Virus genome (UHGV): UHGV-0468246
Length of the DNA: 64,000 bases
Strand: one strand, 5' to 3'
Source of the DNA: a virus
Shown here: one piece after another, positions 25,001 to 52,447 of the stretch
How positions within the stretch are numbered: the stretch's first letter is position 1
Layout: each line of letters starts with the position of its first letter
Position numbers and translations under genes: made by a program
Notes under the pieces: generated by a model
Seen by the model: the letters and a program-made list of their open reading frames with translations, nothing else
The model's database searches: none
What the model was told of the DNA's origin: nothing

Positions 25001-26434
25001 GCGCGTGAAGACGAGGCGGAAGCCGTAGGCCGTCGCGAGGTTGAAGCGGAACGTAACCGTCGCCATGTCGCCCGTCACCGAAGCGCCGCCCCACGAGCGC
25101 GAGGTGTAGGACAGCGGCGTGCCAAGCTCGTTGGTGAGCTGAAGCCACGTTCCGGCCTCCTCGTCCACGAGGACGTACGGGACGATCTCCACGGGCTTCT
25201 TCGACACCTCGAACTCCAAGCGGTTCACCGGCACGCCCTTCTGAAGGCGAACCTCGAACCACTCGTGCGGCCTGTCCGCCGGATAGGCCTCGTCGCTCGA
25301 CCAGATGCGCGAGCTGCGCGCGTCCTCGCTGAACTGGCACTGCACGACGGGGATGTACTCGACGGGGTACGACCAGTCCACCATGCCGTCGGAGCCGTAG
25401 TACGAAGCGCTGTAAAGGCGGCTCGCAACGTCGGACACGGCGTTCGCCGCCTTCTGCAAGTCCGTCCGCTCCGACGTGCCGAGCGACCTGAACGCCGCCG
25501 CATGGCGCACGTCGTACGCCCCTATGTGCTCCGTCGATGCCGTCGCGTCCTCGATGGTGTAGGTGAAGTCGAACGTCTCCTCCTGATGGTTCACGAGGGC
25601 CTGCGTGGGGGCCTCGCGCCGCTCGTTGGGGGAGACCCACAGGTTCAGGTCGTCGTCAACGTCGTACTCCCAGTCGGGCCGCCCCGTGACGTAGCGCTTG
25701 ATCTGCCACAGGGAGCTTGACGCGAAGACATCTGCCACGGGCACGTCGGAATCGGGCCTCGTCTCCAAGATGAGGCTGTTGAAGAACTCGTCGCGCTGCA
25801 CGACGGTTATGACCGCATCCTGCGGCCTTATCCTCTTCGTTACCTTGTTGATGTTGTAGCGCTCCGCCTCGGTCACCTCGTCGGCATCGACGACCACAAC
25901 GTACTCGTTGTAGTCGGCCTGCGGGTACACGCCGGGCCGAAGGCTCGCCTGATCGCCGTCGTCCACGTTGACGCTCTCGTAGAACTTCCACGCTTCGAGA
26001 ACCTTGCACGGCTTTCCGCACGCCGCCTCCGATGCGAGGCGTATGCCGAAGGCGGTGCCGCCGTACTGGAAGGCCGTCACGTACTTGTGGATGCGCGCGC
26101 GGTACTTGGCATCCTTCGCGTCGGCCTCGTCCTCCTGCTCCTTCGTGACGAGGCGCGTGCGCGGGTCGAACGCGTACGATTCGCTTTCGAGCCGCCTGAA
26201 GCCGAGCACGCGACCGTAGAACTCGTCGAGGTCGTTGTAGTGCGTCTCGTCGAGGCTCGTCTGCAAGCGCTTCAGCATGAGGTGGTTGCGCGCGGCCTCG
26301 ACACCAGCGCCGCCGCAGAGAGCGTCGAGCAGGCGCACCATGTGCGACGAGCGCTTCTTGCTGTAGACCTCCTCCGGGAGGCCGGAAAGGTACTCCGCCC
26401 TGTTCGTCGGGCGCAGCTTGTTCACGCCGCCCAT
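22040..26434 (-). CDS. large baseplate-wedge / tail fibre protein with discoidin-like (F5/8 type C) carbohydrate-binding region
   Basis: 1464 aa directly downstream of baseplate J. The segment FWCSKPNVTQSALEWLVFDLRDASGNASRVNSMRIDAVYGG resembles a discoidin domain. Confidence 0.5.
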   Translation of the reverse strand: MGGVNKLRPTNRAEYLSGLPEEVYSKKRSSHMVRLLDALCGGAGVEAARNHLMLKRLQTSLDETHYNDLDEFYGRVLGFRRLESESYAFDPRTRLVTKEQEDEADAKDAKYRARIHKYVTAFQYGGTAFGIRLASEAACGKPCKVLEAWKFYESVNVDDGDQASLRPGVYPQADYNEYVVVVDADEVTEAERYNINKVTKRIRPQDAVITVVQRDEFFNSLILETRPDSDVPVADVFASSSLWQIKRYVTGRPDWEYDVDDDLNLWVSPNERREAPTQALVNHQEETFDFTYTIEDATASTEHIGAYDVRHAAAFRSLGTSERTDLQKAANAVSDVASRLYSASYYGSDGMVDWSYPVEYIPVVQCQFSEDARSSRIWSSDEAYPADRPHEWFEVRLQKGVPVNRLEFEVSKKPVEIVPYVLVDEEAGTWLQLTNELGTPLSYTSRSWGGASVTGDMATVTFRFNLATAYGFRLVFTRLEAPYYKTLPDGALKADDFPFSIDMAGLSLHYDVMDAEDFAPAVFSDPFGNKVETEMAVSGPERLHDGMPSTFWCSKPNVTQSALEWLVFDLRDASGNASRVNSMRIDAVYGGCQMNVYSTEDGDWETASWKPYPAVYSLQSADYSLPLRKCTFVKLEFTGLSAIPYTVVSDGIEVEELEYPYEVKHYFEQQPASTYATELYRQLLTTQDSPIYEDRLGVYDAIGTSNIYQEAERQRGIEDIISQSYNPLYLPSLVTPASWRFTDNGAISSVLAENMRYERQLPQSPREPVEGKTVKMRFYEDGRHAYKTVRRERSDELAFVAAIREVSFGLSGLRAAVEPDSEFLAFANDASVIDKNVGFELTRDERMVPSTEEMNSLEFVNVNSAVAFKSFDFAVNQNPPREVFDHPSDMIEEWSGLNAEVESTEFGVSGTVLKMDAPASGPGANLLKFTKEMPITATANGQDGISLYNASVGKLTDVGEALRLTFGGNSNVSMSVPLAFPGCVQDGETVTLSFEYRGNIDSFGLFYFLQKTAPNVSIASKNPSAMSETEWNRYEWTFSMANANVRTNYQALLFYSLASYDATKWVEVRKGTLKLESGSKATPYTPAPDDGDEIGIQSQSKLVRSQAIASVQVDVFSVEARTWNLRCKDLSDEEVFNMRYEVEGGKWTTIGTVFTPQTGGMWWSNAYDYRLRIPLSGFVPTGTTVFVPNIDFSILRAQTTPMVRQDLKDFRVIYYNGVECQEIDCDITDNMELWFRVQDEIPAGTKAEGYYDYDLNQFVGAYYVYFGNPNETRAPMRDYHKVFKPLEQPCYEMAVNDPRGTISYEAKKGAHIDDAEASLQIEEAFRIDAGAGFLTFEYIPDEALARVPSGQRGTAEERYIIDYMDESRRFSVYTYEQQLMVRIVEPDGFVNTFADKSPAPFKAGVKSYVLIQWGEQGSEPVHSAPGRIDPNDKNRRSMDVWIDGVQRECINNVYNEAVYDNGVY

Positions 26435-28945: not shown

Positions 28946-30829
28946 TTACGCGTCGCGGGAAACGGAGAACACGAACAGCTCGCTCGCAAGCTCGGTGAGC
29001 ATGCTTTCCGCGAGAACGTCTATCCCCATGTACACGTGCCTGTCGCGGACGAGGACGGGTGCGTTCACGACCACATTGACGATGTTTTCAGCGCTCTGCA
29101 CCTGATCGTAGCCCGTCGCCCTCCCCTTTCCCATGACGGTGAGCAGCCCGGTTGCCCCAAGCCCTATGTAGAACGAGCGGTCGTAGTCCGAAACCAAGCC
29201 GCCGTCGAGCGTGACCGAGTAGATGTACTCGCGGATGTTCGCTGCGCTCTCGCCGAACAGGCCGACGAACGGGTACGGTCGCATCTCCACGGTGTCGTCC
29301 ACGTAGTATCCGCACCGACCGACGAGGCAGACGTACTTCCCGCCGCTCTCGATTATTTTATCGACAACCGCAATCGCGTCGGCCTCCATGTTCGACACCA
29401 TGAACAGGCATGTGGCGGCGTTCCGGCTGTACTTGTCCTCATGCTTCAGATCGTCATCGAAGAGAACCCTCATGCGGTTGCTCGTCTTGTCGATCATGAG
29501 CGATGCCATGGAGTACCACGCCTCCATGTACGACACGTTGGCCTCGGTCTGCCAGTTCGCCGCCTGAAGCGAGCGCATGGACAGCGCCATGCCGTTGTAA
29601 TCGGAGGCGTTGCGCTCCGATATGCGGTACTTGTCCATCGCGGCCCACAGCTCGATCACCTTCTCGTCCGATAGAAGGCGGTAGTCGGAGTAGTCGCCCA
29701 CGACGACCTGCGAGGCGTTGTACTTCGCGAGCACGGAGAACATTCCGTCGGGCTGCGTTATGTCGGGCACGTCGAGCACGAATACCGGCTTGCACGCCTC
29801 CCCGATGCGGCAGCACACGGCGGTCAACGCCTCGAAGCTGCGAAGCTCGCTCTGCTCGTCGGTGCTCTTCTGGTACTTCATGGGCATGCCCGCATAGGCC
29901 CAGCCGTACGTGCCGAAGTCGGACGCTATGCCGCTCCTCGCATACCCGGCACCGTCGGAATCGACTAGGCAGTAGGCGTAGTCGGGAACTATTGCCGTGA
30001 GGGCCGTCTGCCCTATCTTGGACTTGATCGAGACGCACAGCGCGCGCTGCTCCTCCGCGAGGAACGAGCGCCACAGCAGGTAGTCGTCGTCCACCCCGTT
30101 GATGACGTAGCGGTCGCTGGGCATGACGCGGTTCCGCTCGTAGAAGTTCCTGTCAGCCGTCGCGTTGCGGTCGTATCGCAGACCGGCAAGCCCGATGCCG
30201 TCGAGGCAGTACCCGTACACGTCGGTTCCGTGCATCGTGCGCAGCTCGTCGATGAGGGCGGTGAGCGCGTCCTTCGCCCCGGACGGCGAAAACATGCGCG
30301 AGTACTCGCCCGTGCTCGACCTCTGCTGGTACGGATGGAAGTCGGGGTTCGTCGTGTCGCTCCACAACTCTGACGACACGGCGCACGTCACGGCCACGTT
30401 GCGGTGCCTGAAACGGTCGAGCAGCTGCTTCAGAACCGGGTTCTTGCCCAGCCCGTAATCGGCGGCGACCTCGCTGTCCCAGTAAACCATGCCGTCCTTT
30501 GCGACGGTCAGAAGCACCTCGTCGAAGCCTGCGGACGCTATGTCCTCGACCACGACCCGCTCCTTGCCCACGCAGTCCGCCGCGTTCAGGCGGATGGCGT
30601 ACCGCATCACGTTCGTCTCGCCGTTGGTGACGCGGTTCCACAGCTTCCACTTGTTCGAGGCGATGCGCTGGATGAGCCACACTTCGTTGACCTTCGGCGG
30701 CTGGTCGAAGCCCGACAGGTCGAACGATATGGTGAGCTTGCCGGTCTGCGTCATGCATGTTATTCCGTCGCTGCCAACGTTGGTTATCATCGCGGGCAGC
30801 ATCTCGTTCTTGTTCATGTTCCTCTGCAT
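28946..30829 (-). CDS. baseplate spike-like protein (gpV-like N-terminal OB fold) with large C-terminal putative glycosidase/depolymerase domain
   Basis: 627 aa; N-terminal MITNVGSDGITCMTQTGKLTISFD...; its position after the hub matches P2 gpV / T4 gp5. Contains the palindromic motif at 29349. Confidence 0.4.
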   Translation of the reverse strand: MQRNMNKNEMLPAMITNVGSDGITCMTQTGKLTISFDLSGFDQPPKVNEVWLIQRIASNKWKLWNRVTNGETNVMRYAIRLNAADCVGKERVVVEDIASAGFDEVLLTVAKDGMVYWDSEVAADYGLGKNPVLKQLLDRFRHRNVAVTCAVSSELWSDTTNPDFHPYQQRSSTGEYSRMFSPSGAKDALTALIDELRTMHGTDVYGYCLDGIGLAGLRYDRNATADRNFYERNRVMPSDRYVINGVDDDYLLWRSFLAEEQRALCVSIKSKIGQTALTAIVPDYAYCLVDSDGAGYARSGIASDFGTYGWAYAGMPMKYQKSTDEQSELRSFEALTAVCCRIGEACKPVFVLDVPDITQPDGMFSVLAKYNASQVVVGDYSDYRLLSDEKVIELWAAMDKYRISERNASDYNGMALSMRSLQAANWQTEANVSYMEAWYSMASLMIDKTSNRMRVLFDDDLKHEDKYSRNAATCLFMVSNMEADAIAVVDKIIESGGKYVCLVGRCGYYVDDTVEMRPYPFVGLFGESAANIREYIYSVTLDGGLVSDYDRSFYIGLGATGLLTVMGKGRATGYDQVQSAENIVNVVVNAPVLVRDRHVYMGIDVLAESMLTELASELFVFSVSRDA

Positions 30830-30830
30830 G

Positions 30831-32249
30831 TCACTTCTCCCACGAGACCATGCCGGGGAACCGAGTGTCGCCCTTCTCGCACTGCGGGCACACGAGCGTC
30901 ACGCTCGTGCTGTACTGGCCCGCGTTCGGGCCTCCGCTGTGCTGCACGTTGGTGACGTACCCGGAAAGCCCCAAGCTCTTCACCTTCACGCGCATGCCGG
31001 GCCAGATGTTCGGCATCCACGTTATCTGCAAGCTCATCTGGTACTGGTTGGCCCAGTTTCGCATGAACTCGTACAGCGCGTAAAGGAACGGGAGGATGTA
31101 CTGCGGGTTCGCGTCCGTCCCTCCGCTCGTCCCGCTGTCGTTCGGCTTCTCGATGACGTGCTGAAGCTGCTTCTTGGCGGGCCTCGCCCCGTAGCGGCGG
31201 TACAGCTCGCGCGGCGTGAACCGCCACTCCTCGCCCTCCGGTATGTTGATGAGCTTCTTCAGCAGCTCGCTCGGCTCGTTCGATATGGCGTTCTCCCCGA
31301 CATCGTTCAAAACGCCCGACGACAAGGCGGCTGTGTTGCTCTCGATGGACACCACGCCCTGCGTGAGCGCCCATTGCATGTCGGAGGTCTGGCCGCTGCT
31401 TGTGAGGTACTGCCCGCCGGTGTTCACGCCTGCGCAGAACTGATGGCTCACGAACGTGTCGTCGGACTGGGTTATCTTCAGGTCGATCAGCTCGATGTCG
31501 TCGAGCAGAAGGCACGGCGTGTTGCCAGAAACGCCCCAGTAGTCGGGATACCACGCCATGAAGGTACCGTCCGGCCCGGCCATCACCGTGCGCATGGACG
31601 AGTTGAATATGTCCTTGACCGTGTTCCACACCGGCTCGTCGTTCGCCAGCGCGCGCTCGCCGACGAGCAGCTGGGATGCCGCCGCGTTCATCGTGTCGCC
31701 GAAGCTCGATGCGAAGAACCACGCCGTCGAGGCGAGGGAGCCTGACGAGGAGTTCGCCCCTCCGCCCTGCGCCTCGGCCTCCTCGGTGCTGTCAGCATCG
31801 CCGCCGTACTCGCTCGCCGTTATTCCGTCCTTGCTCTGAACGTACCTCGGCGTAACAAACAAGAAGCCGCCGCTGTCGTACACGTTCACCGACAAGTTGT
31901 ACTTCAGGGCATAGGACGATATTGCGTTGACGGCGTTCAACTTGGTTCGCTCGCCAACGTCGATAAGGGAGAACTCCCATGCAAGCCCGTAGCCGAAATA
32001 ATGTATGTACTGCAAGAACTTGACGTTGCCGTCCTCGGCCCACCTCTCGGCGCTCTCCTTTGACACGTAGCCTGAATAGCCGAAGTCTATGGTAAGCCCG
32101 TTGTAGTTCTTTTCGAGGTCTGCCGCAAACAGGCGACACGCCGCCTCGAACGCGCCTTGGAGGCCGTTCGTGCCCTCTCCGCGCGTTTCGGCCTCGTTAA
32201 CCCCCGCGTACTTGTCGTCGTCGGTTGGCACGAAGTACTTCCCTAGCAT
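30831..32249 (-). CDS. baseplate hub-like protein (gp27/gpD-like position)
   Basis: 472 aa; start MLGKYFVPT with RBS GGAGGA 5 nt upstream; lies between the lysin island and the spike. Confidence 0.35.
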   Translation of the reverse strand: MLGKYFVPTDDDKYAGVNEAETRGEGTNGLQGAFEAACRLFAADLEKNYNGLTIDFGYSGYVSKESAERWAEDGNVKFLQYIHYFGYGLAWEFSLIDVGERTKLNAVNAISSYALKYNLSVNVYDSGGFLFVTPRYVQSKDGITASEYGGDADSTEEAEAQGGGANSSSGSLASTAWFFASSFGDTMNAAASQLLVGERALANDEPVWNTVKDIFNSSMRTVMAGPDGTFMAWYPDYWGVSGNTPCLLLDDIELIDLKITQSDDTFVSHQFCAGVNTGGQYLTSSGQTSDMQWALTQGVVSIESNTAALSSGVLNDVGENAISNEPSELLKKLINIPEGEEWRFTPRELYRRYGARPAKKQLQHVIEKPNDSGTSGGTDANPQYILPFLYALYEFMRNWANQYQMSLQITWMPNIWPGMRVKVKSLGLSGYVTNVQHSGGPNAGQYSTSVTLVCPQCEKGDTRFPGMVSWEK

Positions 32250-32250
32250 C

Positions 32251-33396
32251 CTATCCTCCGAACTGGTCGTACGCCGACCGGGCATATGCGATGCGCTTCT
32301 CCATCATGGGGACGGAACCGCGCGTGTACACCCGCTCGAACGCCTCCGTTGCCCATGGCAGATCGGTGATCGCCTTGAACTGGTCGAACGTCATCTTCTC
32401 CGCTATCCACGCCTGCGCGCCGTTCGGATACGTGTAAACTCCGTTGCCGGTGAAAGCGTCGAACTGGGCGGGTGCCTCGCTGACGAAGAACAAGAGCTGC
32501 GCCTGTATGTCCGTCCATTCGGTGCCGCGCTCCGACGCGAAGGCGCACAGGTCGCTGAACCGGCCAGAACCCGCCTCCCACTGAAGCAGCCCGCGTCCGG
32601 GGCCTCCGCCTCCTTGGCACGCCGCCGGGTCTACGCCGCTCTCCTGCTGCATGTTCCCGATCACGCCAGCCGCCGCCTGCTTGCTGAAGCCTTGGCTCAT
32701 GCAGAAGTTCCACACCACCTCCGCGTTGCTGTTGCCGCTGAAGTCGGCAGCTCCGCCCGACGACGAGCCTTCGCTTGCCCCTCCTATGGCGGGGCCTGAC
32801 GTTTGCAGCATCTTGTAGATTTGATTCACCATGTCCGCACCTTGGGTGTCCGAGAGCTTCGCTTGGTACATGGATGTCGCCCACTCGATCACGTCGCTCG
32901 GTATCTGGCCCACGCTGATCTTCGACGCGGGCCAGTCCGCGACCGCTTGGAGCACCTTGACCCCGCTCTTCCAATAGCCGCCGTCCTGCTCCGTATCGTC
33001 CTGCCCACGATAGACGAGCCAGAAGCTCTCCTCCAAGCCCGCGTCCCAGTAGAGCTTCTGCAAGCGGTACAGGACATCGCGCCCCCTTATCTCAACCTCG
33101 TCGGTGTTGAGGTTGTAGTAAGGGGCCTTCGTGACGTAGCCCGCGAGGACTTGGTAGCGGTCTGCCTTGGAGAGGTATATGGCGATCTTGTCCATGGGCA
33201 TGAGAAGCCCGGTGTACTTTTCCCCCTCGTTCTTCAGGTGCAGGATGAAGTCGCTCGAATCGTCCGTCTTCAGGTTGACGGTGAACCGCGTGATGTCGTC
33301 CGAGAGGTCGTACGCAGTCGTCCTCCCGTCGCGCGTCAGCGACACGTTGGCCTCGACCATGGGGGTGTATGTAAGGATAGCCGTCATGGCTGACAT
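32251..33396 (-). CDS. tail-associated lysin paralog C: shared N-terminal domain plus lysozyme-like C-terminal domain
   Basis: N-terminus MTAILTYTPMVEANV... is paralogous to the 39055 and 40143 genes; C-terminus GVIGNMQQESGVDP...GRGLLQW fits the phage tail-tip lysozyme family. Confidence 0.6.
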   Translation of the reverse strand: MSAMTAILTYTPMVEANVSLTRDGRTTAYDLSDDITRFTVNLKTDDSSDFILHLKNEGEKYTGLLMPMDKIAIYLSKADRYQVLAGYVTKAPYYNLNTDEVEIRGRDVLYRLQKLYWDAGLEESFWLVYRGQDDTEQDGGYWKSGVKVLQAVADWPASKISVGQIPSDVIEWATSMYQAKLSDTQGADMVNQIYKMLQTSGPAIGGASEGSSSGGAADFSGNSNAEVVWNFCMSQGFSKQAAAGVIGNMQQESGVDPAACQGGGGPGRGLLQWEAGSGRFSDLCAFASERGTEWTDIQAQLLFFVSEAPAQFDAFTGNGVYTYPNGAQAWIAEKMTFDQFKAITDLPWATEAFERVYTRGSVPMMEKRIAYARSAYDQFGG

Positions 33397-33437
33397 TCTA
33401 CCATTCGCGGCGCTCCCCCTCCATGCAGCTCGGCACC

Positions 33438-33453
33438 TCGATTATTTAATCGA
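33438..33453. promoter_or_regulatory. near-palindromic site TCGATTATTTAATCGA overlapping the C39 gene stop codon
   Basis: Lies ~40 nt upstream of the lysin C ATG. Confidence 0.45.
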
Positions 33454-34149
33454 GCGGAGACTGTAGAAGTAGAGCCACTGCGTGGCGTTAAGCTCCTCAT
33501 CGGAATAAGGGCGCTGCGAGTTGTCGCCGCTCTTGGGGTCGCGGATGCGAACGTCGCCGTCGAAGCTCTGCCACAGCAGCACGACGTGGCCGCCGTAGCA
33601 GTTGCCCTGGCCGCCGAGCTGACCGGTCATACCGGCGAACACCACCGCGCCGTCCGCGCACTCCGCCAGCGCCTCGTCGAGCGTCCAGTAGATTTCGGAG
33701 CCGTCGAGGCCGTAGGCCTCCTCCGCGTACGCGCAGAACTTGCCGGGGTCGTTGACCCCATCGGTCAGGCACGTGTCGCCAACGACCGCCGCGAGGTCGC
33801 GCGGGTAGGTGATCTGGTTCGTAAGGTACTCTATCGCCATGGCGGCGCACACGAGGCCGCACCCGGCCTGCGAGATCGACGAGCCTGCGTACTCGATTCC
33901 TCCCCACTGCGGGTCGTCCTGAAGGTACAGCGGCATGTTGTAGCCCGTCGGTATGGCCCTCTGGGCCTCTGTGGCGGGCGCTGGGAGGTCGTTAGCGTCG
34001 AAGTCGAGATAGGGTTCATCTTCGAGCCAAACGGGGGTTCTGGGAGGCTCTGCGTCCGTCTGTGGCACATCGGAGAAAACCGAATAGCCGATGATCGCCG
34101 CGAACAGCGCGGCGACCGCCAGACATTTTATGTAGCCGTTTCGTCTCAT
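33442..34149 (-). CDS. secreted/membrane-anchored C39-like (papain-fold) peptidase
   Basis: N-terminal hydrophobic segment CLAVAALFAAIIGY; DPQWGGIEYAGS...QAGCGLVCAAMAIEY is typical of Peptidase_C39_2. Confidence 0.55.
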   Translation of the reverse strand: MRRNGYIKCLAVAALFAAIIGYSVFSDVPQTDAEPPRTPVWLEDEPYLDFDANDLPAPATEAQRAIPTGYNMPLYLQDDPQWGGIEYAGSSISQAGCGLVCAAMAIEYLTNQITYPRDLAAVVGDTCLTDGVNDPGKFCAYAEEAYGLDGSEIYWTLDEALAECADGAVVFAGMTGQLGGQGNCYGGHVVLLWQSFDGDVRIRDPKSGDNSQRPYSDEELNATQWLYFYSLRSIK

Positions 34150-34182
34150 GGCCGATGATTATACCCCAGCGGGAGCCAAGCG

Positions 34183-34602
34183 TCACCCGGTTCGCTCCCA
34201 CAGCGGCACCGCCACCGACAACGGCATGTTGTTGTGAGGCCGGTTCTGCGCCATGGGCACGTCGTCCCTGTGGTTCTCCTCGTCGTTGATGAAGCCCCAC
34301 CCGGAGGTACCGGTGCCTTGGAAGAACTCGACCCCCGACATGCTCGAACCAGAGGCTAGGTTGCACAGGAGCGCGTGCGCATGCCACGGAAGCTCCGCAG
34401 CGGTGAGCGCGTGCGCGTTCTCCCCGTACCTTCCGCCCGTCCGGTACGTGCCGCCAGCCGCCACGAGGTACACGCCCTCGTCGTGGCGCTCCCACGTGGT
34501 GCCGGGCCACTCCGCGTTCGGGTCGCCCTTGCAGAACACGAACTCGCCGACGGCGTGCGGGCAGTAAACGGAGCGCTTCGGCCCGAAGAGGATGCTAGTC
34601 AC
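34183..34602 (-). CDS. tail-collar-domain (MdpB-like) mini-protein, array member a
   Basis: GTG start after AAGGAGG. Motifs WPGTTW, GENAHALTAAELPWHAH, C-terminal HNNMPLSVAVPLWERTG. Confidence 0.6.
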   Translation of the reverse strand: MTSILFGPKRSVYCPHAVGEFVFCKGDPNAEWPGTTWERHDEGVYLVAAGGTYRTGGRYGENAHALTAAELPWHAHALLCNLASGSSMSGVEFFQGTGTSGWGFINDEENHRDDVPMAQNRPHNNMPLSVAVPLWERTG

Positions 34603-35074
34603 GATGCGCCTCCTTCAGAGCGAGAAGCCCCCCCCCCGACGTGCACTTCCACACGTAGGCTGCGATGTACGGCGGAACGTTGTTGTGAGGCTTGTCGCCG
34701 CCCGTGTAGTAAATCAGGTTCTGCACCCAGTTCGACCACGCCCCCTCCGTGTAGGCCACGGTGCCGTCGTCCACCCTGTAGTCCCCGGAAGCGCTCATGT
34801 TGAACTTCTTCCCGTTCGGATTGTCGGGGGAGTGCGTGTGCCGGGGCATCTCATCGACCGTGAGGACGTGCGCGGCCTCGCCGCCCGTGCTGCCGACTGC
34901 GTACGCTCCGGAGGCCGCGCCCGCGCACACGAACGTCCCGGCGGCCAAAAGCTCCCACTTCGTCCCCGGCCATCTTGCTGACGGGTCGGTGTCCGACAGC
35001 GTGAAGTACAGGTCTCCCGCGTCGTACGGGCACAAGACCGATTTACCGCCGCCGCTCTGAACCTTGACCGTCAT
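34595..35074 (-). CDS. tail-collar-domain mini-protein, array member b
   Basis: WPGTKW, GGEAAHVLTVDEMPRHTH, HNNVPPYIAAYVWK, then a G10 tract encoding the C-terminal GGG tail. Confidence 0.55.
   Translation of the reverse strand: MTVKVQSGGGKSVLCPYDAGDLYFTLSDTDPSARWPGTKWELLAAGTFVCAGAASGAYAVGSTGGEAAHVLTVDEMPRHTHSPDNPNGKKFNMSASGDYRVDDGTVAYTEGAWSNWVQNLIYYTGGDKPHNNVPPYIAAYVWKCTSGGGLLALKEAHRD
34628..34637 (-). repeat. poly-G tract 1 (G10 on sense strand) at the 3' end of array member b
   Basis: Plus-strand C10; sits 25 nt upstream of the GTG start of member a. Confidence 0.8.
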
Positions 35075-35095
35075 AGCGGCATCGCCCCGCACAGA

Positions 35096-35497
35096 TCACG
35101 CGGTGCGCCTCCACAGCGGGACGCATACGGAGTACGGCATGTTGTTGTGGGGCTGGCCTCCGCCCGTGTGGACGGAACTGCTGTCAATCCAGTTGTTGCC
35201 AGAAACAGCGGCGTACCTCCCCGTGTTGCCGCCCTTCGACAGCTCGACGTTCCAGTTGTTGCCGCCGTCGCCGGTGTGGCTGTGGCTCGGAATCTCCTCG
35301 ATGGTGAGGATGTGCGAGTTCTCCCCACGGTTCGTGAGCGTCTTGAAGTTGTCGCCGGAAGAGACGAGGTAGGTTGCCTCCTCGTATCTGGCCCATGTGG
35401 TGCCGGGCCACTCGCCGTTGGGGTCGAACTCGCAGTGCAGCCACGTTCCAACAGGATGCGGGCAGTAGTAGCCCTTCCCCTTGACGTTAAGCCGCAT
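35096..35497 (-). CDS. tail-collar-domain mini-protein, array member c
   Basis: WPGTTW, GENSHILTIEEIPSHSH, C-terminal HNNMPYSVCVPLWRRTA. Confidence 0.6.
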   Translation of the reverse strand: MRLNVKGKGYYCPHPVGTWLHCEFDPNGEWPGTTWARYEEATYLVSSGDNFKTLTNRGENSHILTIEEIPSHSHTGDGGNNWNVELSKGGNTGRYAAVSGNNWIDSSSVHTGGGQPHNNMPYSVCVPLWRRTA

Positions 35498-35930
35498 GGC
35501 GCATCACGGAGGCGGCTATGCCCCCCCCCCTGATCGTGCGCAGGTTTATCTTCACGGGCCAATTAGACCCGTTGCAGGTTCCGCCGACATCGGAGAACGT
35601 CACCTTCGTCCCGGATATGGCGGCCCTCGCGCGCCAAAGGCACGAGTTGCCCCCAATCGCGGTTCCGAAATGGAGGTCTACCGTCTTGCCGTTCGGTGAG
35701 TACACGCGGAAGGTCGGGAGCCAAACGCCGTCGTTGTACATGCAGTCAAATTCAAGCCACTGGTAGCTCGCGGCGCTCGCGCTCAACGCGTACACGTTGC
35801 CGTTGCTCAAAAGATGGCTGCCGCTCCACAAGGTCGCTACGCCCTGCTTCGAGTACGGGATGGTCGGTATCTGCGCGATGTTGAGCACGGGCGTTTGAAC
35901 GCCGGACGAGTTACGGTACTTCAGGTACAT
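35487..35930 (-). CDS. small beta-rich protein of a different family embedded in the collar array, array member d
   Basis: Start MYLKYRNSSGV with RBS GAGAGGAGG; no collar motifs; C-terminus runs through the G10 tract (…RTIRGGGIAASVMRHAA). Confidence 0.5.
   Translation of the reverse strand: MYLKYRNSSGVQTPVLNIAQIPTIPYSKQGVATLWSGSHLLSNGNVYALSASAASYQWLEFDCMYNDGVWLPTFRVYSPNGKTVDLHFGTAIGGNSCLWRARAAISGTKVTFSDVGGTCNGSNWPVKINLRTIRGGGIAASVMRHAA
35521..35530 (-). repeat. poly-G tract 2 (G10 on sense strand) at the 3' end of member d, 27 nt upstream of member c's ATG
   Basis: Plus-strand C10. G9 would give an immediate stop; G11 reads through ~150 codons. Confidence 0.8.
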
Positions 35931-35950
35931 CTCATGCCTCCTCTCGGAGG

Positions 35951-36379
35951 CTACGCGGTGCGCCTCCACATATCGACGGAAAGGTACGGGGGCCTGTTCT
36001 CATGCGGCTTGTTCCTTCCGGGGAGCCGAACGTACTTATCTTCCCACTTGACCTTACCGTATTCGCTCGTAATGCCCCAAGCGTCTGCTCCGCCGCTATT
36101 GTCGCGCTGCTTCGATTGCAGATAGATTTGCGGCAAAGCGTCTGCCGACAACGTGACGGAGGCTGCGCCGCCGGTATTGCCGACGGCGTAATCGCCGGTC
36201 GTCGCGCCTCCGCTCGACACGAGGAAGGTGCCCGCAGCGATGCGCGTCCAAGTCGTCCCCGGCCAGAGAGCGGACGGCGTGACGTTGGATGCGCTGATGT
36301 AAACCCCTCCCACCGGGAACGGGCAGAACTGCTGAACGGATGCTCCGTTGCGCCATTTGAGGACGGACAGGTTAGCCAT
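35951..36379 (-). CDS. tail-collar-domain mini-protein, array member e1
   Basis: WPGTTW, GGAASVTLSADALP, C-terminal HENRPPYLSVDMWRRTA. Confidence 0.55.
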   Translation of the reverse strand: MANLSVLKWRNGASVQQFCPFPVGGVYISASNVTPSALWPGTTWTRIAAGTFLVSSGGATTGDYAVGNTGGAASVTLSADALPQIYLQSKQRDNSGGADAWGITSEYGKVKWEDKYVRLPGRNKPHENRPPYLSVDMWRRTA

Positions 36380-36821
36380 GCAGACCACCGCCCGAAGATG
36401 CTACGCGGTGCGCTCCCACATGTACACGACGAGGTACGGGGGCATGTTGTTGTGCGACTGCCCCCCCCGCCAAATGCATGACATCGCTGTCAACCGGGTC
36501 GCCCGCCATCATGCCGCGCGATATGCACATTTGTTCTTGCGTTCCGCTGCCGGTGCGCCAATATCCCTGCGTGTCGTGGTTGTGGGGCGGCATCTCTGCC
36601 TTCGTCAAGGTATGCCTCTCCTCGCCGCCGGTCGAGCCTGCCGACTTGGAGCCTGCGGCGTACAGGAACACGTCCTGCAACCTTCTCCACGTCCCGCCCA
36701 TGAACGTTGACGGGTCGGTCGCCTTGGTCGAATGGTAGATGCTGCCCACCGGGAAGAACAGGTTCAGGAGCGAGACGGTCGAGCCGCCCGCCCTCGCCTT
36801 GAAGCCGAGCGCGGTGGTCAC
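36372..36821 (-). CDS. tail-collar-domain mini-protein, array member e2, frameshifted at a G8 tract
   Basis: GTG start. GGEERHTLTKAEMPPHNH is present. As sequenced the C-terminus is out of frame; G7 or G10 restores …HLAGG(G)QSHNNMPPYLVVYMWERTA-stop. Confidence 0.5.
   Translation of the reverse strand: MTTALGFKARAGGSTVSLLNLFFPVGSIYHSTKATDPSTFMGGTWRRLQDVFLYAAGSKSAGSTGGEERHTLTKAEMPPHNHDTQGYWRTGSGTQEQMCISRGMMAGDPVDSDVMHLAGGAVAQQHAPVPRRVHVGAHRVASSGGGLHG
36461..36468 (-). repeat. poly-G tract 3 (G8 on sense strand) inside member e2
   Basis: Plus-strand C8; the frame of the conserved C-terminal strand depends on tract length. Confidence 0.8.
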
Positions 36822-36842
36822 AAGATCACCGCCTCTCGCTCG

Positions 36843-37253
36843 TTACGAAACCCTCTTCCACATATCGACCGCGAGGTACGGAGGCCGGTTCTCGTGCGCG
36901 CCTCCTTCTCCCGTGTCGCCGGAGAAGGTGTTAGACCAGAACGTGTTGCTGCCGTTGATGAAGTACAGACATGGAGAGCTTCCGCCGCCCGCGTCGTACC
37001 CGTTGTATATGGAGTGCTGGTGGCTCGGAATCTGCGCCGTGGTGAGGGCGACGGAAGCCGCCCCTCCCGTCTTGCCTGCGGCATAGTCACCCGACGCGAC
37101 ACCGCCGCTCGACGCGAGGAACGTGCCGGAAGCGATGCGCTCCCAAACCGTCCCCGGCCAGAAGCCAGCCGGGTCGATGTTGGAGACGTTGAAGTAGACG
37201 CTGCCGACGGGCAGGGGGCAGTAATAGCCCGTGCCGACGACTTTAAGCCGCAT
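36843..37253 (-). CDS. tail-collar-domain mini-protein, array member e3
   Basis: WPGTVW, GGAASVALTTAQIPSHQH, C-terminal HENRPPYLAVDMWKRVS. Confidence 0.6.
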   Translation of the reverse strand: MRLKVVGTGYYCPLPVGSVYFNVSNIDPAGFWPGTVWERIASGTFLASSGGVASGDYAAGKTGGAASVALTTAQIPSHQHSIYNGYDAGGGSSPCLYFINGSNTFWSNTFSGDTGEGGAHENRPPYLAVDMWKRVS

Positions 37254-37265
37254 GGGGCACCTCCC

Positions 37266-37681
37266 CTACGCCGTGCGCCTCCAAACGAACACGGTTGCGT
37301 ACGATGGGTAGAACGGTGCCCCCCCCCGGTCGTGCCAGTGGTCGTGCCGGTCTTGGCATCTCCGTCTCCCCATGCGGGCGCGCTCGCCACTCCGCTCACG
37401 TTCCAGCAGAACTTGCCGGTGCTCACGTAGAGATGGCTGTGCGCTGGCATCTGCGACACGCTTATGGTGTCGCTGCCGCCGGTCGCCCCCGCCTTGGAGG
37501 ACGCGGAGCCGCCGCGAAGGTACCTGTCGGTCGCGTACAGCGCCCACGTCCCGCCGAGGAACGAGGATGGGTTCTTGTTCTCGTAGGTGAGGTACGCGCT
37601 CCCCACGGGAAAGAACATGTCAAGAAGGGTCACGGTCGCGCCGTTCGCCTTCAGCTTCACGCCATGGGCGGTAACGGTCAT
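37266..37681 (-). CDS. tail-collar-domain mini-protein, array member e4, frameshifted at a G9 tract
   Basis: N-terminal part is in track ORF 36818..37681 (…GGSDTISVSQMPAHSH…TGTTGGG); C-terminal part APFYPSYATVFVWRRTA is in track ORF 37266..37547. G10 would join them. Confidence 0.5.
37319..37327 (-). repeat. poly-G tract 4 (G9 on sense strand) inside member e4
   Basis: Plus-strand C9; a +1 G restores the conserved C-terminus. Confidence 0.8.
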
Positions 37682-37699
37682 GCCATCACCGCCTTTCGG

Positions 37700-38104
37700 T
37701 CATGAGATTCTGCGCCAGAAGTACACCGCAACGTACGGCGGCATGTTGTTGTGGGCGGCATTGCCGCCGACGCTGACGAGCCTTCCCAGATTGCCGCTCG
37801 GGGCGTATCCGTACTCTCCCTGCGCGAACGCCCTGTTCCCGAGGTCTCCGACGATGAGCATGTCGGCTGATGGGTTGTGGTTGTGAGATGGCATCTCCGA
37901 GACGGAGAGCTTATGGGCCGCCTCGCCACCGGTCGCCCCTCCGGCGTACGACGAACCTGCGCCGAGCAGGAACCGGTCTTTCCCGTAAAGGCTCCACGAG
38001 GTTCCGGGCCAATAGGACGACGGGTTGACGTTCTCCGTCGAGATGTAGATGCCGTTCGGCTGGACGGGGCAGTAGCAGCCGTGTCCGGGGACGTTAAGCC
38101 GCAT
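37700..38104 (-). CDS. tail-collar-domain mini-protein, array member e5
   Basis: WPGTSW, GGEAAHKLSVSEMPSHNH, C-terminal HNNMPPYVAVYFWRRIS. Confidence 0.6.
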   Translation of the reverse strand: MRLNVPGHGCYCPVQPNGIYISTENVNPSSYWPGTSWSLYGKDRFLLGAGSSYAGGATGGEAAHKLSVSEMPSHNHNPSADMLIVGDLGNRAFAQGEYGYAPSGNLGRLVSVGGNAAHNNMPPYVAVYFWRRIS

Positions 38105-38128
38105 AGGGCACCGCCTCCCCGCACGGGG

Positions 38129-38556
38129 CTACATTGCGGTTGCCCCCCCCCGGTTCGCTTCCACATGTACACGGCGAGCCAAGGCGGCATGTTGTTGTGC
38201 GCGGCATTGCCGCCGACGCTCGCCGACGCGACGATTGCCGTGTTGCCGGTGTACGCGAAGCCGTTGCCGGGAGAGCCGTCCGTTCCAGTCCATTGCGGCC
38301 ACTCGACGTTGTGCGCATGGCTCGGCATCTCGTTCACGGTGAGCTTATGGGCCGCCTCGCCGCCGGTGTTCCCGACCTTGTAGGTGCCCGAGGCCGCACC
38401 GGCCACGAGGAACGTACCGGCTGCGACCAGCTCCCACGTCGTGTCGCCCCAGCGCGTCGCCGGGTTGACCGCCGACATGGTTACGTACACGTCTCCGACC
38501 GCGTACGGGCACAGGTTCTTCTTAGCGCCGTTCTGGCTGTATGAGAGGGCGGTCAT
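38129..38556 (-). CDS. tail-collar-domain mini-protein, array member f; the 3' end is set by a G9 tract (as sequenced the frame reads through to ~37678)
   Basis: Start MTALSYSQNG after GGGGGTGG. GGEAAHKLTVNEMPSHAH, HNNMPPWLAVYMWKRT, then a G tract. G10 gives …GGGATAM-stop at ~38129. Confidence 0.5.
38143..38151 (-). repeat. poly-G tract 5 (G9 on sense strand) at the 3' end of member f
   Basis: Plus-strand C9, directly upstream of the RBS of member e5. Confidence 0.8.
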
Positions 38557-38572
38557 GCGACCACCCCCCGCG

Positions 38573-39000
38573 CTACGCCGTCCTCTTCCAGACGTTGACG
38601 GAGATGTGGAGCGGGTAGTAGTCCGCCCCCCCCCTGTTGCGTTCGTCCATGCGTCGAACGTGTATAGCGAATCTTCGACAACGCCGGAAAGGGCGAAGTT
38701 CTCGCTGCCTTCCACGTTCTCCCTCAACGTGGTCGTGACAGACCTTGTTCCCGAATGGATGTGCGACGGCATCTGGCCGACGCTTATCTTCTTCGAGCCG
38801 CCTACGGCACCAGCCGCAGCGTACCCAGCCGTCCCGGCGCACGCGAGCACGCCGCCCGTCAGCTTCACCCACGTGCCGCCGAAGACGGTGTTCGGGTCTT
38901 CCGAGCCGACGGTGAGGTAAAGGCTGTTCACCGGGCGCACGAGGTCGAGCATCGTCTTGTCGATGCCGCCCTCCAGATGGAACCCGCTCAATCTTGCCAT
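38573..39000 (-). CDS. tail-collar-domain mini-protein, array member g, frameshifted at a G9 tract (reads in frame into member f as sequenced)
   Basis: RBS AGGAGG before ATG 39000. GGSKKISVGQMPSHIH…NATGGG, then the frame is lost; G10 restores ADYYPLHISVNVWKRTA-stop at 38573. As sequenced, track ORF 37678..39000 fuses g and f. Confidence 0.5.
38626..38634 (-). repeat. poly-G tract 6 (G9 on sense strand) inside member g
   Basis: Plus-strand C9. Confidence 0.8.
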
Positions 39001-39054
39001 TGCCGCCTCCTGTGTGTCTGACGCTGAAATGATAGCACAGGGCCGGGCGCTCGG

Positions 39055-40146
39055 CTACGCCGCCTTCTCGTAGCGGAAGAAGTGCGTCCAGCCGCCGGAG
39101 ATTTTCACCACGGAGATTTCATCGCCCGTCTGGTCTCCGCCCTGCCCGTATATGCCGCCGTCCTCCGCGCTGTGAGCGCCCGCCGTCTCTCCGTTGCCGA
39201 TGTACCATTCCGTGTGCGCTGCGCGCCACATGATGTCGCCGCGCTTCAGCGAGCCGACGTTGCCGTCGTACGGGTACATCTTCCATCCGATGGGCGGAAG
39301 AACCTCCTGCATGCGCGTCGTGTTGAACGTCCAGCTTCCAAGCTCCTCGCGCGTCCATCCACCGGCGAGGAGCGAGTAGAAGACCAATGACGAGCAGTCG
39401 TAATCGGGGTTCCCGTCGCGGTTCCCCTGACTGTACCCGTGGCTGTCGTCGTTGCATATCTGTATGGCCCACTGCACGGCCTTCTCGACCGCCTCGTACG
39501 AAGCGGTTCCCCCTCCGGCTGACGACGAGCCGCCGGAGCCTATGGCGGGGCCTGACGTTTGCAGCATCTTGTAAATCTGGTTCACCATGTCCGCGCCTTG
39601 GGTGTCGGCCAGCTTGACGCGGTACATCGACGTTGCGAACTCGATCACGTCGTCGGGCAGCTGCCCTATGGCGATCTTCGACGCGTCCCAGTTGGCGACG
39701 TTGGTGAGCACGTTCGCCCCCACGCGCCAGTACTCCTCGTGCGTCTTCCACGTCGAGCTGTTCGTGAACAGGAGCTGCTGCGATTCGTACAGCCCCGCGT
39801 CCCAGTAGAGCGCTTGGAGGCGGTAGAGCGCGCACTTCCCGGACATCTCGAAGTCGGCGTTGTAGAGCCGCCAGAAGTCGCACTTGGTGATGTACCCGGC
39901 GAAGACCGGGTACTCGTCGCCCTTGGACAGGCGTATGACGATTCTGTCCATGGGCGTGAACGCCCCGTTGTACTTGCCGCCCTTGTTCTGAAGTGACAGG
40001 GAGAACGTGGAGCAGCTATCGACGTTCAGGTTTATCTTGAAGCCGGTGATGTCGTCGGTGAGGTCGTACGCGCGCACGGAGCCGTCCTGCTGGCGCACCG
40101 CCACCTCGGCCTTGACCATCGGCGTGTAGGTGAGTATGGCCGTCAT
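39055..40146 (-). CDS. tail-associated lysin paralog B: shared N-terminal domain plus NlpC/P60- or CHAP-like Cys/His peptidase domain
   Basis: Start MTAILTYTPMVKAEV (internal ATG of track ORF 39055..40422); C-terminal YDCSSLVFYS…HTEWYIGNG papain-like Cys/His motifs. Confidence 0.6.
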   Translation of the reverse strand: MTAILTYTPMVKAEVAVRQQDGSVRAYDLTDDITGFKINLNVDSCSTFSLSLQNKGGKYNGAFTPMDRIVIRLSKGDEYPVFAGYITKCDFWRLYNADFEMSGKCALYRLQALYWDAGLYESQQLLFTNSSTWKTHEEYWRVGANVLTNVANWDASKIAIGQLPDDVIEFATSMYRVKLADTQGADMVNQIYKMLQTSGPAIGSGGSSSAGGGTASYEAVEKAVQWAIQICNDDSHGYSQGNRDGNPDYDCSSLVFYSLLAGGWTREELGSWTFNTTRMQEVLPPIGWKMYPYDGNVGSLKRGDIMWRAAHTEWYIGNGETAGAHSAEDGGIYGQGGDQTGDEISVVKISGGWTHFFRYEKAA

Positions 40147-41243
40147 GGCAGAAGCCCCGGCCTGCACGGATAGGCCTCGTCGAGTATAACGCCGCCGTTC
40201 CAGCCCCACCCGGTGCCCTGCGGCACGTAGGTGTTGCCGGAGTTCACCCATTCCGTCAGCGACCACTCGTGCACGTACCCTATGTTGTCGAGAACCACGC
40301 CGTTGCCGACGTAGATTCCCACATGGCCGTACACGCATCCGGGGTTGCCGGAGTTGTCCCAGCCGTAGCCGAACACGGCTGCTCCGACCTTGACCTTGCT
40401 CCAATCCGTCGATGCGCCCCACGCCCGCGCCGCCTCGCGCGCCGAAGACTTGCGGGGTATCTTGATTCCGGCAGCGTCGAACACGTCGTCAACCCACTTC
40501 TGGCAGAAGCCGCCCTGCGTGGTTATGCCGTACCTCTCGGAGTTCTTCGCGACCTCGACGATCTTCTTCTGCGCCTCGGTCACGTCGCCGTCGAACACGT
40601 CCCCGCCGAGGCCCCCGATGTCCCCCGTCGCCTCCGTGAAGGTAGGCCCCGACACCTGCAACATCGAGTAGATTTGATTCACCATGTCGGCTCCCTGCGT
40701 GTCGGCCAGCCTCGCATCGTACATCGACAGCGCCCACTCGATGACCTCGGTCGGTATCTGGCCCACGCTGATGCGCTCGGCGGGCCAACCGGCGACGCTC
40801 ATCAGGACGTTGGCTGCGGCGCGCCAGTAGCCGCCGTCCTGATCGGAGCTTTCGGCGCTCTGGAAAGTGACAAGCTCGCGAGACGCGAGAAGGCCGCTGT
40901 CCCAGTAAAGGGCCTGCAAGCGCCATAGAACGTCCTTGCCCGTTATGGTGACGGGCTGCGAGTTCAGCATGAACATGGGAACCTTCGTGACGTAGCCCGC
41001 GAGGACTTGGTAGCGGTTCGCCTTGGAGAGGTATATGGCTATCGCGTCCATGGGCTTGAACGCCCCGTCGTACTTGCCGCCGACGTTCTGAAGCGTGAGC
41101 GAGAACGTGGAGCAGCCGTCGGTGTTCAGCGTCACGGAGAAGTCGGTGATGTCGTCGGTGAGGTCGTAGTACTTGTAGCCGTTCGCCGTCTGCGCCCTCA
41201 CCTGCGCGCTCACCATCGGCGTGTAGGCGAGTATGGCCGTCAT
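40143..41243 (-). CDS. tail-associated lysin paralog A: shared N-terminal domain plus CHAP peptidase domain
   Basis: MTAILAYTPMVSAQV…; C-terminal GGFCQKWVDDVF…GHVGIYVGNG CHAP-like Cys/His motifs. Confidence 0.65.
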   Translation of the reverse strand: MTAILAYTPMVSAQVRAQTANGYKYYDLTDDITDFSVTLNTDGCSTFSLTLQNVGGKYDGAFKPMDAIAIYLSKANRYQVLAGYVTKVPMFMLNSQPVTITGKDVLWRLQALYWDSGLLASRELVTFQSAESSDQDGGYWRAAANVLMSVAGWPAERISVGQIPTEVIEWALSMYDARLADTQGADMVNQIYSMLQVSGPTFTEATGDIGGLGGDVFDGDVTEAQKKIVEVAKNSERYGITTQGGFCQKWVDDVFDAAGIKIPRKSSAREAARAWGASTDWSKVKVGAAVFGYGWDNSGNPGCVYGHVGIYVGNGVVLDNIGYVHEWSLTEWVNSGNTYVPQGTGWGWNGGVILDEAYPCRPGLLP

Positions 41244-52352: not shown

Positions 52353-52361
52353 CCCCCCCCC
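52353..52361 (-). repeat. G9 homopolymer (sense) in an intergenic leader, followed by CACGG as upstream of dnaE
   Basis: Sense ttatGGGGGGGGGcacggcctg, compared with ataGGGGGGGGGcacggaATG upstream of dnaE. Confidence 0.8.
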
Positions 52362-52416: not shown

Positions 52417-52447
52417 AAAAAAAAAGAACCCCTCTCGCGAGGGGTTC
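52417..52447 (-). terminator. strong rho-independent terminator after the major capsid gene
   Basis: Sense hairpin gaacccctcgcgagaggggttc followed by T9. Confidence 0.8.

Follow-up and report, generated by a model that had tools for sequence, protein, structure and literature searches.

We analysed a 64,000-nucleotide stretch of the virus genome UHGV-0468246 (the window), whose minus-strand tail genes include three paralogs, p1, p2 and p3. Each paralog joins a common N-terminal domain (N-domain) to a different peptidoglycan hydrolase domain. The common domain corresponds to the N-terminal half of a gp27/gp44-type baseplate hub, and the C-terminal half lies in the adjacent gene, which we call hubC. 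On balance we favour a hub built from two kinds of gene product, namely hubC and three diverged, enzyme-bearing N-half paralogs, with the genes between p2 and p3 being later insertions. The four genes are as follows (aa, amino acids):

p1, 40143..41243, minus strand: 366 aa; hub N-half (aa 1-~200), linker and NlpC/P60-like cysteine peptidase domain (aa ~223-347)
p2, 39055..40146, minus strand: 363 aa; hub N-half and Amidase_5/ELLD-type cysteine amidase/peptidase domain
p3, 32251..33396, minus strand: 381 aa; hub N-half and Phage_lysozyme2 domain (aa 224-379)
hubC, 30831..32249, minus strand: N-terminal domain of ~150 aa, then the C-terminal half of a gp27/gp44-type hub

The window belongs to an Eggerthella myophage and shares 97-99% DNA identity with phage LE2-3 of Eggerthella (MW679026.1, 111,961 bp), which infects E. 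lenta DSM 2243; part of a small-gene array at 36.9-38.6 kb is the exception. The depositors of LE2-3 labelled these genes only 'baseplate protein', 'tail protein', 'tail fiber protein' or 'hypothetical protein'. In the window p1, p2, p3 and a C39-like peptidase gene between p2 and p3 are all intact open reading frames (ORFs). The true start of p3 is most likely at 33387 (MTAIL...), the shorter form annotated in LE2-3.

A preliminary description of the window, made from its letters, had proposed three paralogous tail lysins with a common N-terminal domain and three different catalytic domains, and both proposals held. Pairwise BLASTP comparisons of the N-terminal ~200 residues gave 56-62% identity over 197-220 residues (expectation value, E, 1.6e-73 to 2.5e-82). 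Similarity ends at about residue 205-220, and beyond a flexible Gly/Ser-rich linker nothing aligns. The C-terminal part of p3 matched Phage_lysozyme2 (PF18013) over positions 2-140 of 140 (E 1.6e-29; 103.3 bits, cut-off 28.2). That of p2 matched both Amidase_5 (PF05382; E 6e-9; 36.4 bits, cut-off 21) and ELLD (PF25309; E 1e-8; 35.8 bits, cut-off 27), and that of p1 is NlpC/P60-like. Each chain carries the hub domain together with one such hydrolase domain. The predicted activities are an NlpC/P60-like endopeptidase for p1, an Amidase_5/ELLD-type amidase or peptidase for p2 and a lysozyme-like glycosidase for p3. The catalytic motifs (Cys246/His307 in p1, Cys251/His311 in p2 and Glu252 in p3) are kept in orthologues from genomes of 40-46% guanine-plus-cytosine (GC) content. 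Across genomes of 40, 46 and 63% GC, the enzyme domains are 70-80% conserved, catalytic residues included. The p2 orthologues in two related loci, L002 and L007, are 56-69% identical with intact motifs.

The identity of the common domain came from profile and fold comparisons. In the 952-position profile phrog_2810 ('virion structural protein'), p1-p3 match positions ~49-286 (p2, 49-267, E 5e-22; p3, 49-279, E 1.4e-19), and hubC matches positions 648-920 (E 1e-41). The hub part of hubC covers aa ~200-484, counted from an alternative start at 32285; the start most likely used is the ATG at 32249, in agreement with the LE2-3 annotation. This ATG lies one base past the p3 TAG and 5 nucleotides past a GGAGGA ribosome-binding site. 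A tblastn search with the N-domain returned 224 actinobacteriophage records; among the matches listed, it occurs in one copy each and opens a large 'minor tail / baseplate' protein. In Rhodococcus phage E3, the single chain gp119 (806 aa) has the N-domain at 1-220, SLT_3 at 229-314, NlpC/P60 at 398-485 and the C-domain at 503-749, and the gene order is tape measure, two small genes, hub, W and J. The phrog_2810 matches and the architecture of E3 gp119 led us to name the downstream gene hubC and to read p1-p3 as N-halves of a split hub. In fold comparison, both hub halves matched diffocin CD1368 (PDB 8v3w) and phage 812 gp110 (PDB 9euf). The two tube-like beta-barrel domains and two further domains of the gp27/Mu gp44/XkdQ-type fold are present. 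Instead of one chain found once per genome, however, the N-part and the C-part are separate genes and the N-part occurs three times. Sequence searches against PDB chains gave no detectable similarity of the window hub proteins to CD1368 or gp110; for p1 they gave at most marginal NlpC/P60 matches, and for hubC marginal ones or none.

These genes stand where a hub gene is expected, after the tape measure and ahead of the gp25/W-J wedge genes. The order is sheath, tube, chaperones, a 736-aa tape-measure candidate, genes for 237 and 170 aa, p1, p2, the insert, p3 and hubC, followed by genes for a 627-aa protein, a gp25-like protein (phrog_2669) and a J-like protein (phrog_6). ATGA overlaps join the 170-aa gene to p1 and p1 to p2, and the p3 stop is followed by the G-ATG of hubC. 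The overlaps and the tight p3/hubC junction fit joint expression of the four genes. We also considered a programmed +1 fusion of p3 and hubC at the GGAGGA before the TAG. It was rejected: the GGA-TAG-G context has no re-pairing codon, and relatives use ordinary stop/start overlaps.

The arrangement extends well beyond this phage. An exhaustive HMMER search with an N-domain profile yielded 672 cluster representatives. Among the best 150 of the 672, lengths were bimodal, with ~70 proteins of 338-420 aa and ~60 of 640-1155 aa. When the N-domains were placed in a neighbour-joining tree, one pure, metagenomic clade took in 66 of the 70 short forms, so the split looks like essentially one old event. 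The C-termini of the 70 short forms were diverse: NlpC/P60 in 16, ELLD in 10, Phage_lysozyme2 in 9, Amidase_5 in 8 and CHAP in 5, with M23 (2), SLT (1), C92 (1) and C39_2 (1) being rarer. This variety, together with an L002 orthologue of p3 that carries a C-terminal domain other than the lysozyme, bears out the earlier suggestion of catalytic module shuffling.

We then compared gene order in related loci drawn from Logan, IMG/VR and metagenome collections. A search with the three window N-domains as query found only a near-identical IMG/VR contig, and the loci below come from a sub-alignment of eight short forms. Copies were counted in loci spanning the entire hub region, namely LE2-3-like contigs, L002, L007, L012, L019, L030 and L031. 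In L002 (46% GC), p1, p2, p3 and hubC are contiguous. In L007 (40% GC) the order is p1, p2, C39-like gene, p3 and hubC. L012 (55% GC) and L019 (49% GC) have three contiguous N-half genes and then hubC, and some of these N-half genes encode a pair of enzyme domains or a fusion to a C39-like domain. L030 and L031 (65-67% GC) have two N-half genes and then hubC. Overall, hubC lay directly downstream of the N-half genes in every such locus, and the order p1, p2, p3, hubC was constant across lineages of 40-67% GC.

Orthologues in the window and L007 are 66-70% identical, as against 54-64% for paralogs within a genome; the triplication is therefore older than the divergence of these two lineages. 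The N-domains cluster by lineage. The C-domains fall into types A-F, and within a lineage the paralogs usually differ in type. This pattern argues for selection that keeps a set of unlike enzymes, and it too bears out the suggested module shuffling.

Two further observations concern the C-terminal domains. A type C domain (14 members; motifs such as GDMVDVTYDNG or GDYIDWVLTNG, and WGH) replaces the lysozyme on some N-halves, with instances in L002 (8335-9399, aa ~215-354) and in the second N-half genes of L030 and L031. It is possibly a DPBB/3D-type lytic transglycosylase, an assignment that no search supports. The protein P0001, in which the p3 N-domain is fused to a p2-type lysin, was considered as proof of domain swapping and set aside. 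Its contig, L036 (ENA ERZ28637456 scaffold_4306), looks mis-assembled: it runs from the 3' end of the C39-like gene through the hybrid and the array to the 5' end of the C39-like gene. The hybrid could have arisen by genuine unequal crossover, but a cyclic mis-assembly through a 32-nucleotide stretch identical in p2 and p3 is the likelier source. As the order in L036 is what such a mis-assembly would yield, the hybrid was not counted.

The distribution of conserved columns gave a clue to how the N-halves might be used. We analysed nine N-domains from three genomes. Of the columns identical within a genome and different between genomes, 7 of 8 fell in residues 1-20 or 175-200. By contrast, all 18 paralog-specific columns conserved between orthologues fell in residues 41-160. 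The conserved terminal peptides (e.g. MTAILxYTPMV versus MTKKLVYTPGVSAYV) are encoded by different synonymous codons in the three copies, suggesting a shared constraint and not recent gene conversion. On these synonymous sites we rejected recent gene conversion as the source of the identical termini; the 32-nucleotide identical run at the p2/p3 domain boundary is the exception. The column pattern points to a common docking partner for p1-p3.

Such a partner could be hubC. A hubC trimer would offer three equivalent docking sites for N-halves. If the N-half gives the first barrel and hubC the second, the N-halves would touch hubC on both sides and not one another. The lineage-specific N-terminal strand and C-terminal helix, the same in all paralogs, would let the paralogs compete for or share the hubC sites. 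With sites filled from the paralog pool, a virion would carry on average a mixture of enzymes, and this mixture could cut both the glycan and the peptide parts of a thick Gram-positive wall at the point where the tube enters. Later insertions at a permissive p2|p3 junction would have added the C39-like peptidase and, in the LE2-3 lineage only, a Gp10_C array with hypervariable polyG tracts. In its strongest form this becomes a combinatorial heteromer, in which one hubC trimer binds any mix of N-halves to give a tip with up to three wall-cutting activities, with a polyG-switched array at the same junction; we put this forward as a tentative extension, clearly less secure than the two-product hub itself.

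Several points weigh against the two-product hub with three enzyme-bearing halves. The NlpC/P60 score of p1 (PF00877) is under the Pfam curated cut-off. The first ~150 residues of hubC have no family in Pfam (E up to 10) and none in a PDB profile search. The presence of two N-half copies in L030 and L031 shows that a strict design with one of each per trimer is not general, and it rules out 'three paralogs for three hub positions' as a strict rule. Finally, that p1, p2 and p3 are all present in the particle and bound to hubC is something we infer from the sequences.

The N-terminus of hubC was examined further. Its first ~150 residues (MLGKYFVPTDDDKYAG...YFGYGLAWEF...) are conserved in the window, L002, L007, L012, L030 and L031, and the domain takes the place of the second lysin of the single-chain relatives. 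An hhalign comparison with the N-domain showed no similarity (probability 0.1%), and the AlphaFold model of this region is of low confidence, probably shaped by misaligned N-domain rows. We considered a degenerate VanY/LAS-type peptidase, that is, a fourth lysin, and dropped it after Pfam, the PDB profile search and hhalign all came back empty.

Four other explanations need to be weighed. The paralogs might be mutually exclusive, each particle carrying a homotrimer of one of them; a lysate would then mix particles specialised for particular wall chemotypes or growth states, as bet-hedging or for host range. This would be consistent with termini that would dock to a common partner and are the same in all paralogs, with a copy number of either 2 or 3, and with enzyme types that differ inside each lineage. 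Nothing in the sequence would enforce exclusivity, however; the single transcriptional direction and the start/stop overlaps favour joint expression, and equivalent sites on a C3 partner would fill at random. We regard such alternative hubs as unlikely.

We hold it about equally improbable that p3 alone is the structural hub N-half and that p1 and p2 are extra tail-associated lysins, sited elsewhere (tube initiator or ripcord-like positions) or ejected. The constant adjacency of p3 and hubC, which jointly match the domain order of the single-chain ancestor, would suit this explanation, and so would the columns in residues 41-160, whose conservation between orthologues implies a function of its own for each copy. 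Against it, neither the terminal segments nor the predicted fold differ among the copies, the layout of L002, L012 and L019 puts the three genes side by side with nothing to set one apart, and the N-domains within a lineage are mutual closest relatives.

The preliminary description had grouped the tail lysins, the secreted peptidase and the collar genes as one accessory island of 9 kb, sitting in an otherwise canonical tail module with the tape-measure-proximal genes on one side and the hub on the other; the third explanation is that such an island was gained horizontally. The insertion idea stands for the collar array and, less strictly, for the C39-like gene: the array is missing from related lineages and its content varies between near-identical genomes, and the C39-like gene is absent from L002, L012, L019, L030 and L031. 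It fails for p1, p2 and p3, the common domain of which belongs to the hub itself. What was taken for the start of the hub block is the hub's other half, hubC. The p1-p3 and hubC genes adjoin one another in L002, L012 and L019 and their order holds across lineages of 40-67% GC, a start/stop overlap couples p1 to the core tail gene upstream of it, and GC across 32-42 kb is 0.627-0.640, as against 0.60-0.65 elsewhere, with no compositional break. The synteny check that had been proposed, for relatives lacking the 32-41 kb block, found p1-p3 retained in L002, L007, L012 and L019, with just the C39-like gene between p2 and p3 in L007. For the lysin genes an island is already largely refuted, and as an account of the whole block it is very improbable. 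We replace it by a rebuilt core gene (p1, p2, p3 and hubC) and two insertions at one junction, the C39-like gene and the Gp10_C array.

The same description had allowed that the common domain might be a standard baseplate protein found once in relatives, its extra copies being assembly duplications. The first part is correct for distant relatives, namely E3 and cluster-C-like mycobacteriophages, and the second is not, since the copies are old, diverged and conserved. Although repeats can mislead assemblers, and L036 joins a p3 N-domain to a p2 lysin in a cycle-like way reminiscent of a de Bruijn graph mis-join, duplication artefacts or pseudogenes have almost no probability left: the paralogs are intact, only 56-62% identical and conserved in their orthologues down to the catalytic residues, and the same three genes recur in the isolate genome LE2-3, in an IMG/VR contig and in at least six human-gut metagenome contigs.

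The two insertions deserve separate description. The first is a single gene:

C39-like gene, 33442..34149, minus strand: signal-anchored C39_2-like papain-fold protein; transmembrane segment aa 7-25, Cys97, His188

The earlier call of a signal-anchored C39-like papain-like protein is supported. The protein has a positively charged N-terminus, hydrophobic residues 7-25, Cys97 and a single His (His188). Its own match to Peptidase_C39_2 (PF13529; E 0.005) scores 17.8 bits, under the 24-bit cut-off; the L007 orthologue, 42% identical, scores 33.4 bits, above it. A large protein collection holds 63 homologues; several bear a precomputed PF13529 label, and one is a fusion with Phage_holin_1. Homologues of 47-57% identity were examined in four other contexts. 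In all four they are flanked by a holin and a GH25-LysM endolysin, stops and starts overlap, and the cassette closes a siphophage or prophage tail module. In LE2-3 the only copy lies inside the tail module instead of next to a holin and an endolysin, and a GH25 enzyme (LE23_35), likely the lysis endolysin, is ~59 kb away near a small protein that looks like a two-transmembrane-segment one. From the holin/GH25 contexts of its homologues, we read the C39-like protein as probably an exported, membrane-anchored lysis-type peptidase that landed at the p2|p3 junction; a tail component or other virion part is the less likely role. Upstream of the gene, a sigma-70-like site at 34186-34158 was dismissed as a promoter, the promoter/terminator scan having found 1 site where 2.1 are expected by chance. 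In L038, a prophage-like contig with a holin/C39-like/GH25 cassette, a weak reverse-transcriptase (RVT_1) gene at 3406-4587 lies by tail-fibre genes and might belong to a diversity-generating retroelement.

The second insertion is an array of ~4.8 kb at 34183..39000 on the minus strand. It comprises ten small stand-alone Gp10_C genes (T4 gp10/gp12 head-like, HxH motif) of about 133-165 aa and one unrelated gene, in a three-frame reading:

g1, 38576-39000, minus strand: Gp10_C, frame-broken
g2, 38129-38556, minus strand: Gp10_C, without its stop
g3, 37700-38104, minus strand: Gp10_C
g4, 37266-37681, minus strand: Gp10_C, frame-broken
g5, 36843-37253, minus strand: Gp10_C
g6, 36401-36821, minus strand: Gp10_C, frame-broken
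g7, 35951-36388, minus strand: Gp10_C
g8, 35487-35969, minus strand: unrelated gene
g9, 35096-35497, minus strand: Gp10_C
g10, 34595-35092, minus strand: Gp10_C
g11, 34183-34602, minus strand: Gp10_C

With g1, g2 and g4 scored after frame repair, 8 of the 10 copies match Gp10_C (PF21939) at 39.6-60.7 bits (E 1e-9 to 4e-16; cut-off 27 bits), while g9 (25.2 bits) and g11 (26.7 bits) are slightly under the cut-off. The array paralogs are 23-51% identical. A role as receptor-binding heads fits the locus L032, in which Gp10_C ends a 492-aa fibre-like protein beside a siphophage Tal. The frame breaks coincide exactly with homopolymer G tracts in g1, at the end of g2, in g4 and in g6, and one more G (in g6, G7 or G10) gives back full-length PF21939 matches. 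The six tracts, with their lengths in independent LE2-3-like assemblies, are:

38626..38634, minus strand: G9 in g1 at a T-G-G-G motif; G10 would restore ...ADYYPLHISVNVWKRTA*; lengths 9, 9, 6, 6, 10, 9 in six assemblies
38143..38151, minus strand: G9 at the g2 3' end; G10 gives a stop at 38129; lengths 9, 9, 8
37319..37327, minus strand: G9 in g4; G10 would restore ...APFYPSYATVFVWRRTA*; lengths 9, 9
36461..36468, minus strand: G8 in g6; G7 or G10 would restore ...QSHNNMPPYLVVYMWERTA*; lengths 8, 8, 9, 9
35521..35530, minus strand: G10 near the g8 3' end, 24 nucleotides before the g9 start; lengths 10, 9, 8, 8, 9, 9
34628..34637, minus strand: G10 near the g10 3' end, 26 nucleotides before the g11 start; lengths 10, 8, 9, 9, 8, 9, 9, 9, 9 in nine assemblies

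At G9, the g2 tract reads through ~150 off-frame codons into an artefactual 440-aa ORF at 37678-39000; this and the ORF at 36818-37681 are read-through artefacts in the ORF list. Long G runs are concentrated here: the array holds six G8-G10 runs in 4.8 kb, whereas the other 59 kb hold 41 G5, no G6-G8 and three G9 runs. In array paralogs that lack a tract, the same Gly motif is spelled by codons that interrupt the G run. Tract length varies between 6 and 10 nucleotides across up to nine assemblies, and the internal tracts are mostly in the OFF frame in the assemblies seen. Long homopolymers in or next to the frame, polymorphic in length among related genomes, are the sequence features of a contingency locus, and the array is a candidate phase-variable cassette of receptor-binding-head-like genes. 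From these assemblies, DNA-level switching, homopolymer sequencing error, transcriptional slippage and -1 frameshifting are not separable as sources of the frame breaks.

Array content also differs between genomes that elsewhere are 97-99% identical. LE2-3 is without g4 and g5, the IMG/VR contig is without g3-g6, and gut contigs have from about 6 up to 13 or more copies. Differences were mapped for window 36900-38564 against L001 16681-17502, and for L005, L013, L014, L017, L018 and L023. The array is absent from L002, L007, L012, L019, L030 and L031. Outside it, G9 tracts (C9 on the plus strand) lie at 3260-3268, 7668-7676 and 52353-52361, with an A9 at 52417-52425. By coordinate transfer to LE2-3, these G9 tracts are apparently at gene ends or intergenic, near RecA-like and DNA pol III alpha genes and just past the major capsid gene; the capsid-proximal one is G9 in the window and G10 in LE2-3.

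Elsewhere in the window (60-65% GC), the 627-aa protein downstream of hubC (28946-30829) has no Pfam or PHROG match and might be a spike or depolymerase. A 1464-aa baseplate-region protein (22040-26434) has an L002 counterpart with only a precomputed DUF7297 label; both of these large proteins are conserved. The 539-aa ORF at 48707-50326 has an intein-type look, with homing-endonuclease/Hint-like motifs seen by eye in its translation, within what the LE2-3 annotation calls a 'PhoH family protein'. E. lenta phage PhiKL11 is an unrelated 44-kb siphovirus.

Hubs with wall-degrading domains have only recently been seen structurally in contractile machines that target Gram-positive bacteria, and there as one-chain homotrimers. 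Here a whole clade of phage contigs of ~100-140 kb, many of them gut-derived, has the hub split and its enzyme half in 2-3 paralogs with consistently unlike enzymes, which suggests how, by simple genetic means, a tail tip with three-fold symmetry could be given an enzyme cocktail. The N-half would be a natural docking module of ~200 aa that tolerates at least nine hydrolase families, and it could be put to direct use when phages, tailocins or lysins are engineered to attack Coriobacteriia or other Gram-positive gut bacteria. The public LE2-3 labels 'baseplate protein' and 'tail protein' are corrected by these assignments. The host phase-varies its own capsule (PMC13131767), and phage escape by capsule-locus switching is known for it. 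If the heteromer with its switched array is true, the phage would diversify its adsorption specificity in parallel with its wall penetration, facing a host whose capsule is phase-variable.

The closest known relatives are the single-chain phrog_2810 hubs of actinobacteriophages (E3 gp119, the Myrna/Bxz1-type and Phrappuccino-type mycobacteriophages, and Gordonia phages). They have homologous N and C hub parts with lysins between them, and their genes too follow the tape measure and precede gp25/W and J. They are, however, single polypeptides of ~800-950 aa present once, whereas in the window the gene is cut after the first lysin and the N-half exists in three diverged copies with one enzyme each. 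The literature searched, which was not exhaustive, held no description of a split hub of this kind.

Hub trimers bearing peptidoglycan-degrading domains are known from phage 812 (PMC13433997) and diffocin (PMC10996793). In diffocin CD1368, a lytic transglycosylase and then an endopeptidase come after the gp27-like domain (PMC10996793). Phage 812 gp110 consists of domains I-IV, a clamp and a CHAP 'cleaver' that is active in zymograms; its domains I and III alternate round the ring, giving pseudo-six-fold symmetry (PMC13433997). The likeness to the window phage lies in a gp27-like hub with a peptidoglycan hydrolase for the Gram-positive wall and in the same proposed role. In these two systems hub domains I-IV are contiguous and the enzymes come off the C-terminus of one homotrimeric chain; in the window phage the enzymes follow the N-terminal hub part, the chain is split and the paralogs carry different enzymes.

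For the insertions, the lysis cassettes of metagenomic siphophage and prophage contigs (L032, L034/35, L037 and L038) share a homologous ~233-aa protein with 47-57% identity and an N-terminal hydrophobic segment, but the window's C39-like gene is found inside the tail module, with p2/array on one side and p3 on the other, far from GH25. Phage contingency loci are on record (PMC12633550), and in Campylobacter phages the genes for receptor-binding proteins are reported to contain polyG tracts that are hypermutable (Sorensen et al. 2021, Cell Rep 35:109214, cited in PMC10877375). The likeness is in long homopolymers, in or at the ends of tail-fibre-type genes, whose length varies among close relatives and sets the reading frame; the difference is that the window has six tracts within a tandem array of ten stand-alone Gp10_C head-like genes. 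The array is a candidate second case of phase-variable phage receptor-binding genes.

Delivery of a wall-degrading domain by a central hub or spike that is a trimer is also seen in T4 gp27-gp5 and in the VgrG proteins of type VI secretion systems with C-terminal effectors. In T4, however, the lysozyme is on the spike protein gp5 and not on the hub, and VgrG is a fusion of gp27 and gp5, not a split gp27. In V. cholerae, several VgrG paralogs with different effector domains can co-assemble. Such a mixed VgrG spike is the nearest analogue of the mixed hub proposed for the window phage. If true, the heteromeric hub would be the phage counterpart of mixed VgrG spikes, enabled by the splitting of a gp27-type hub gene.

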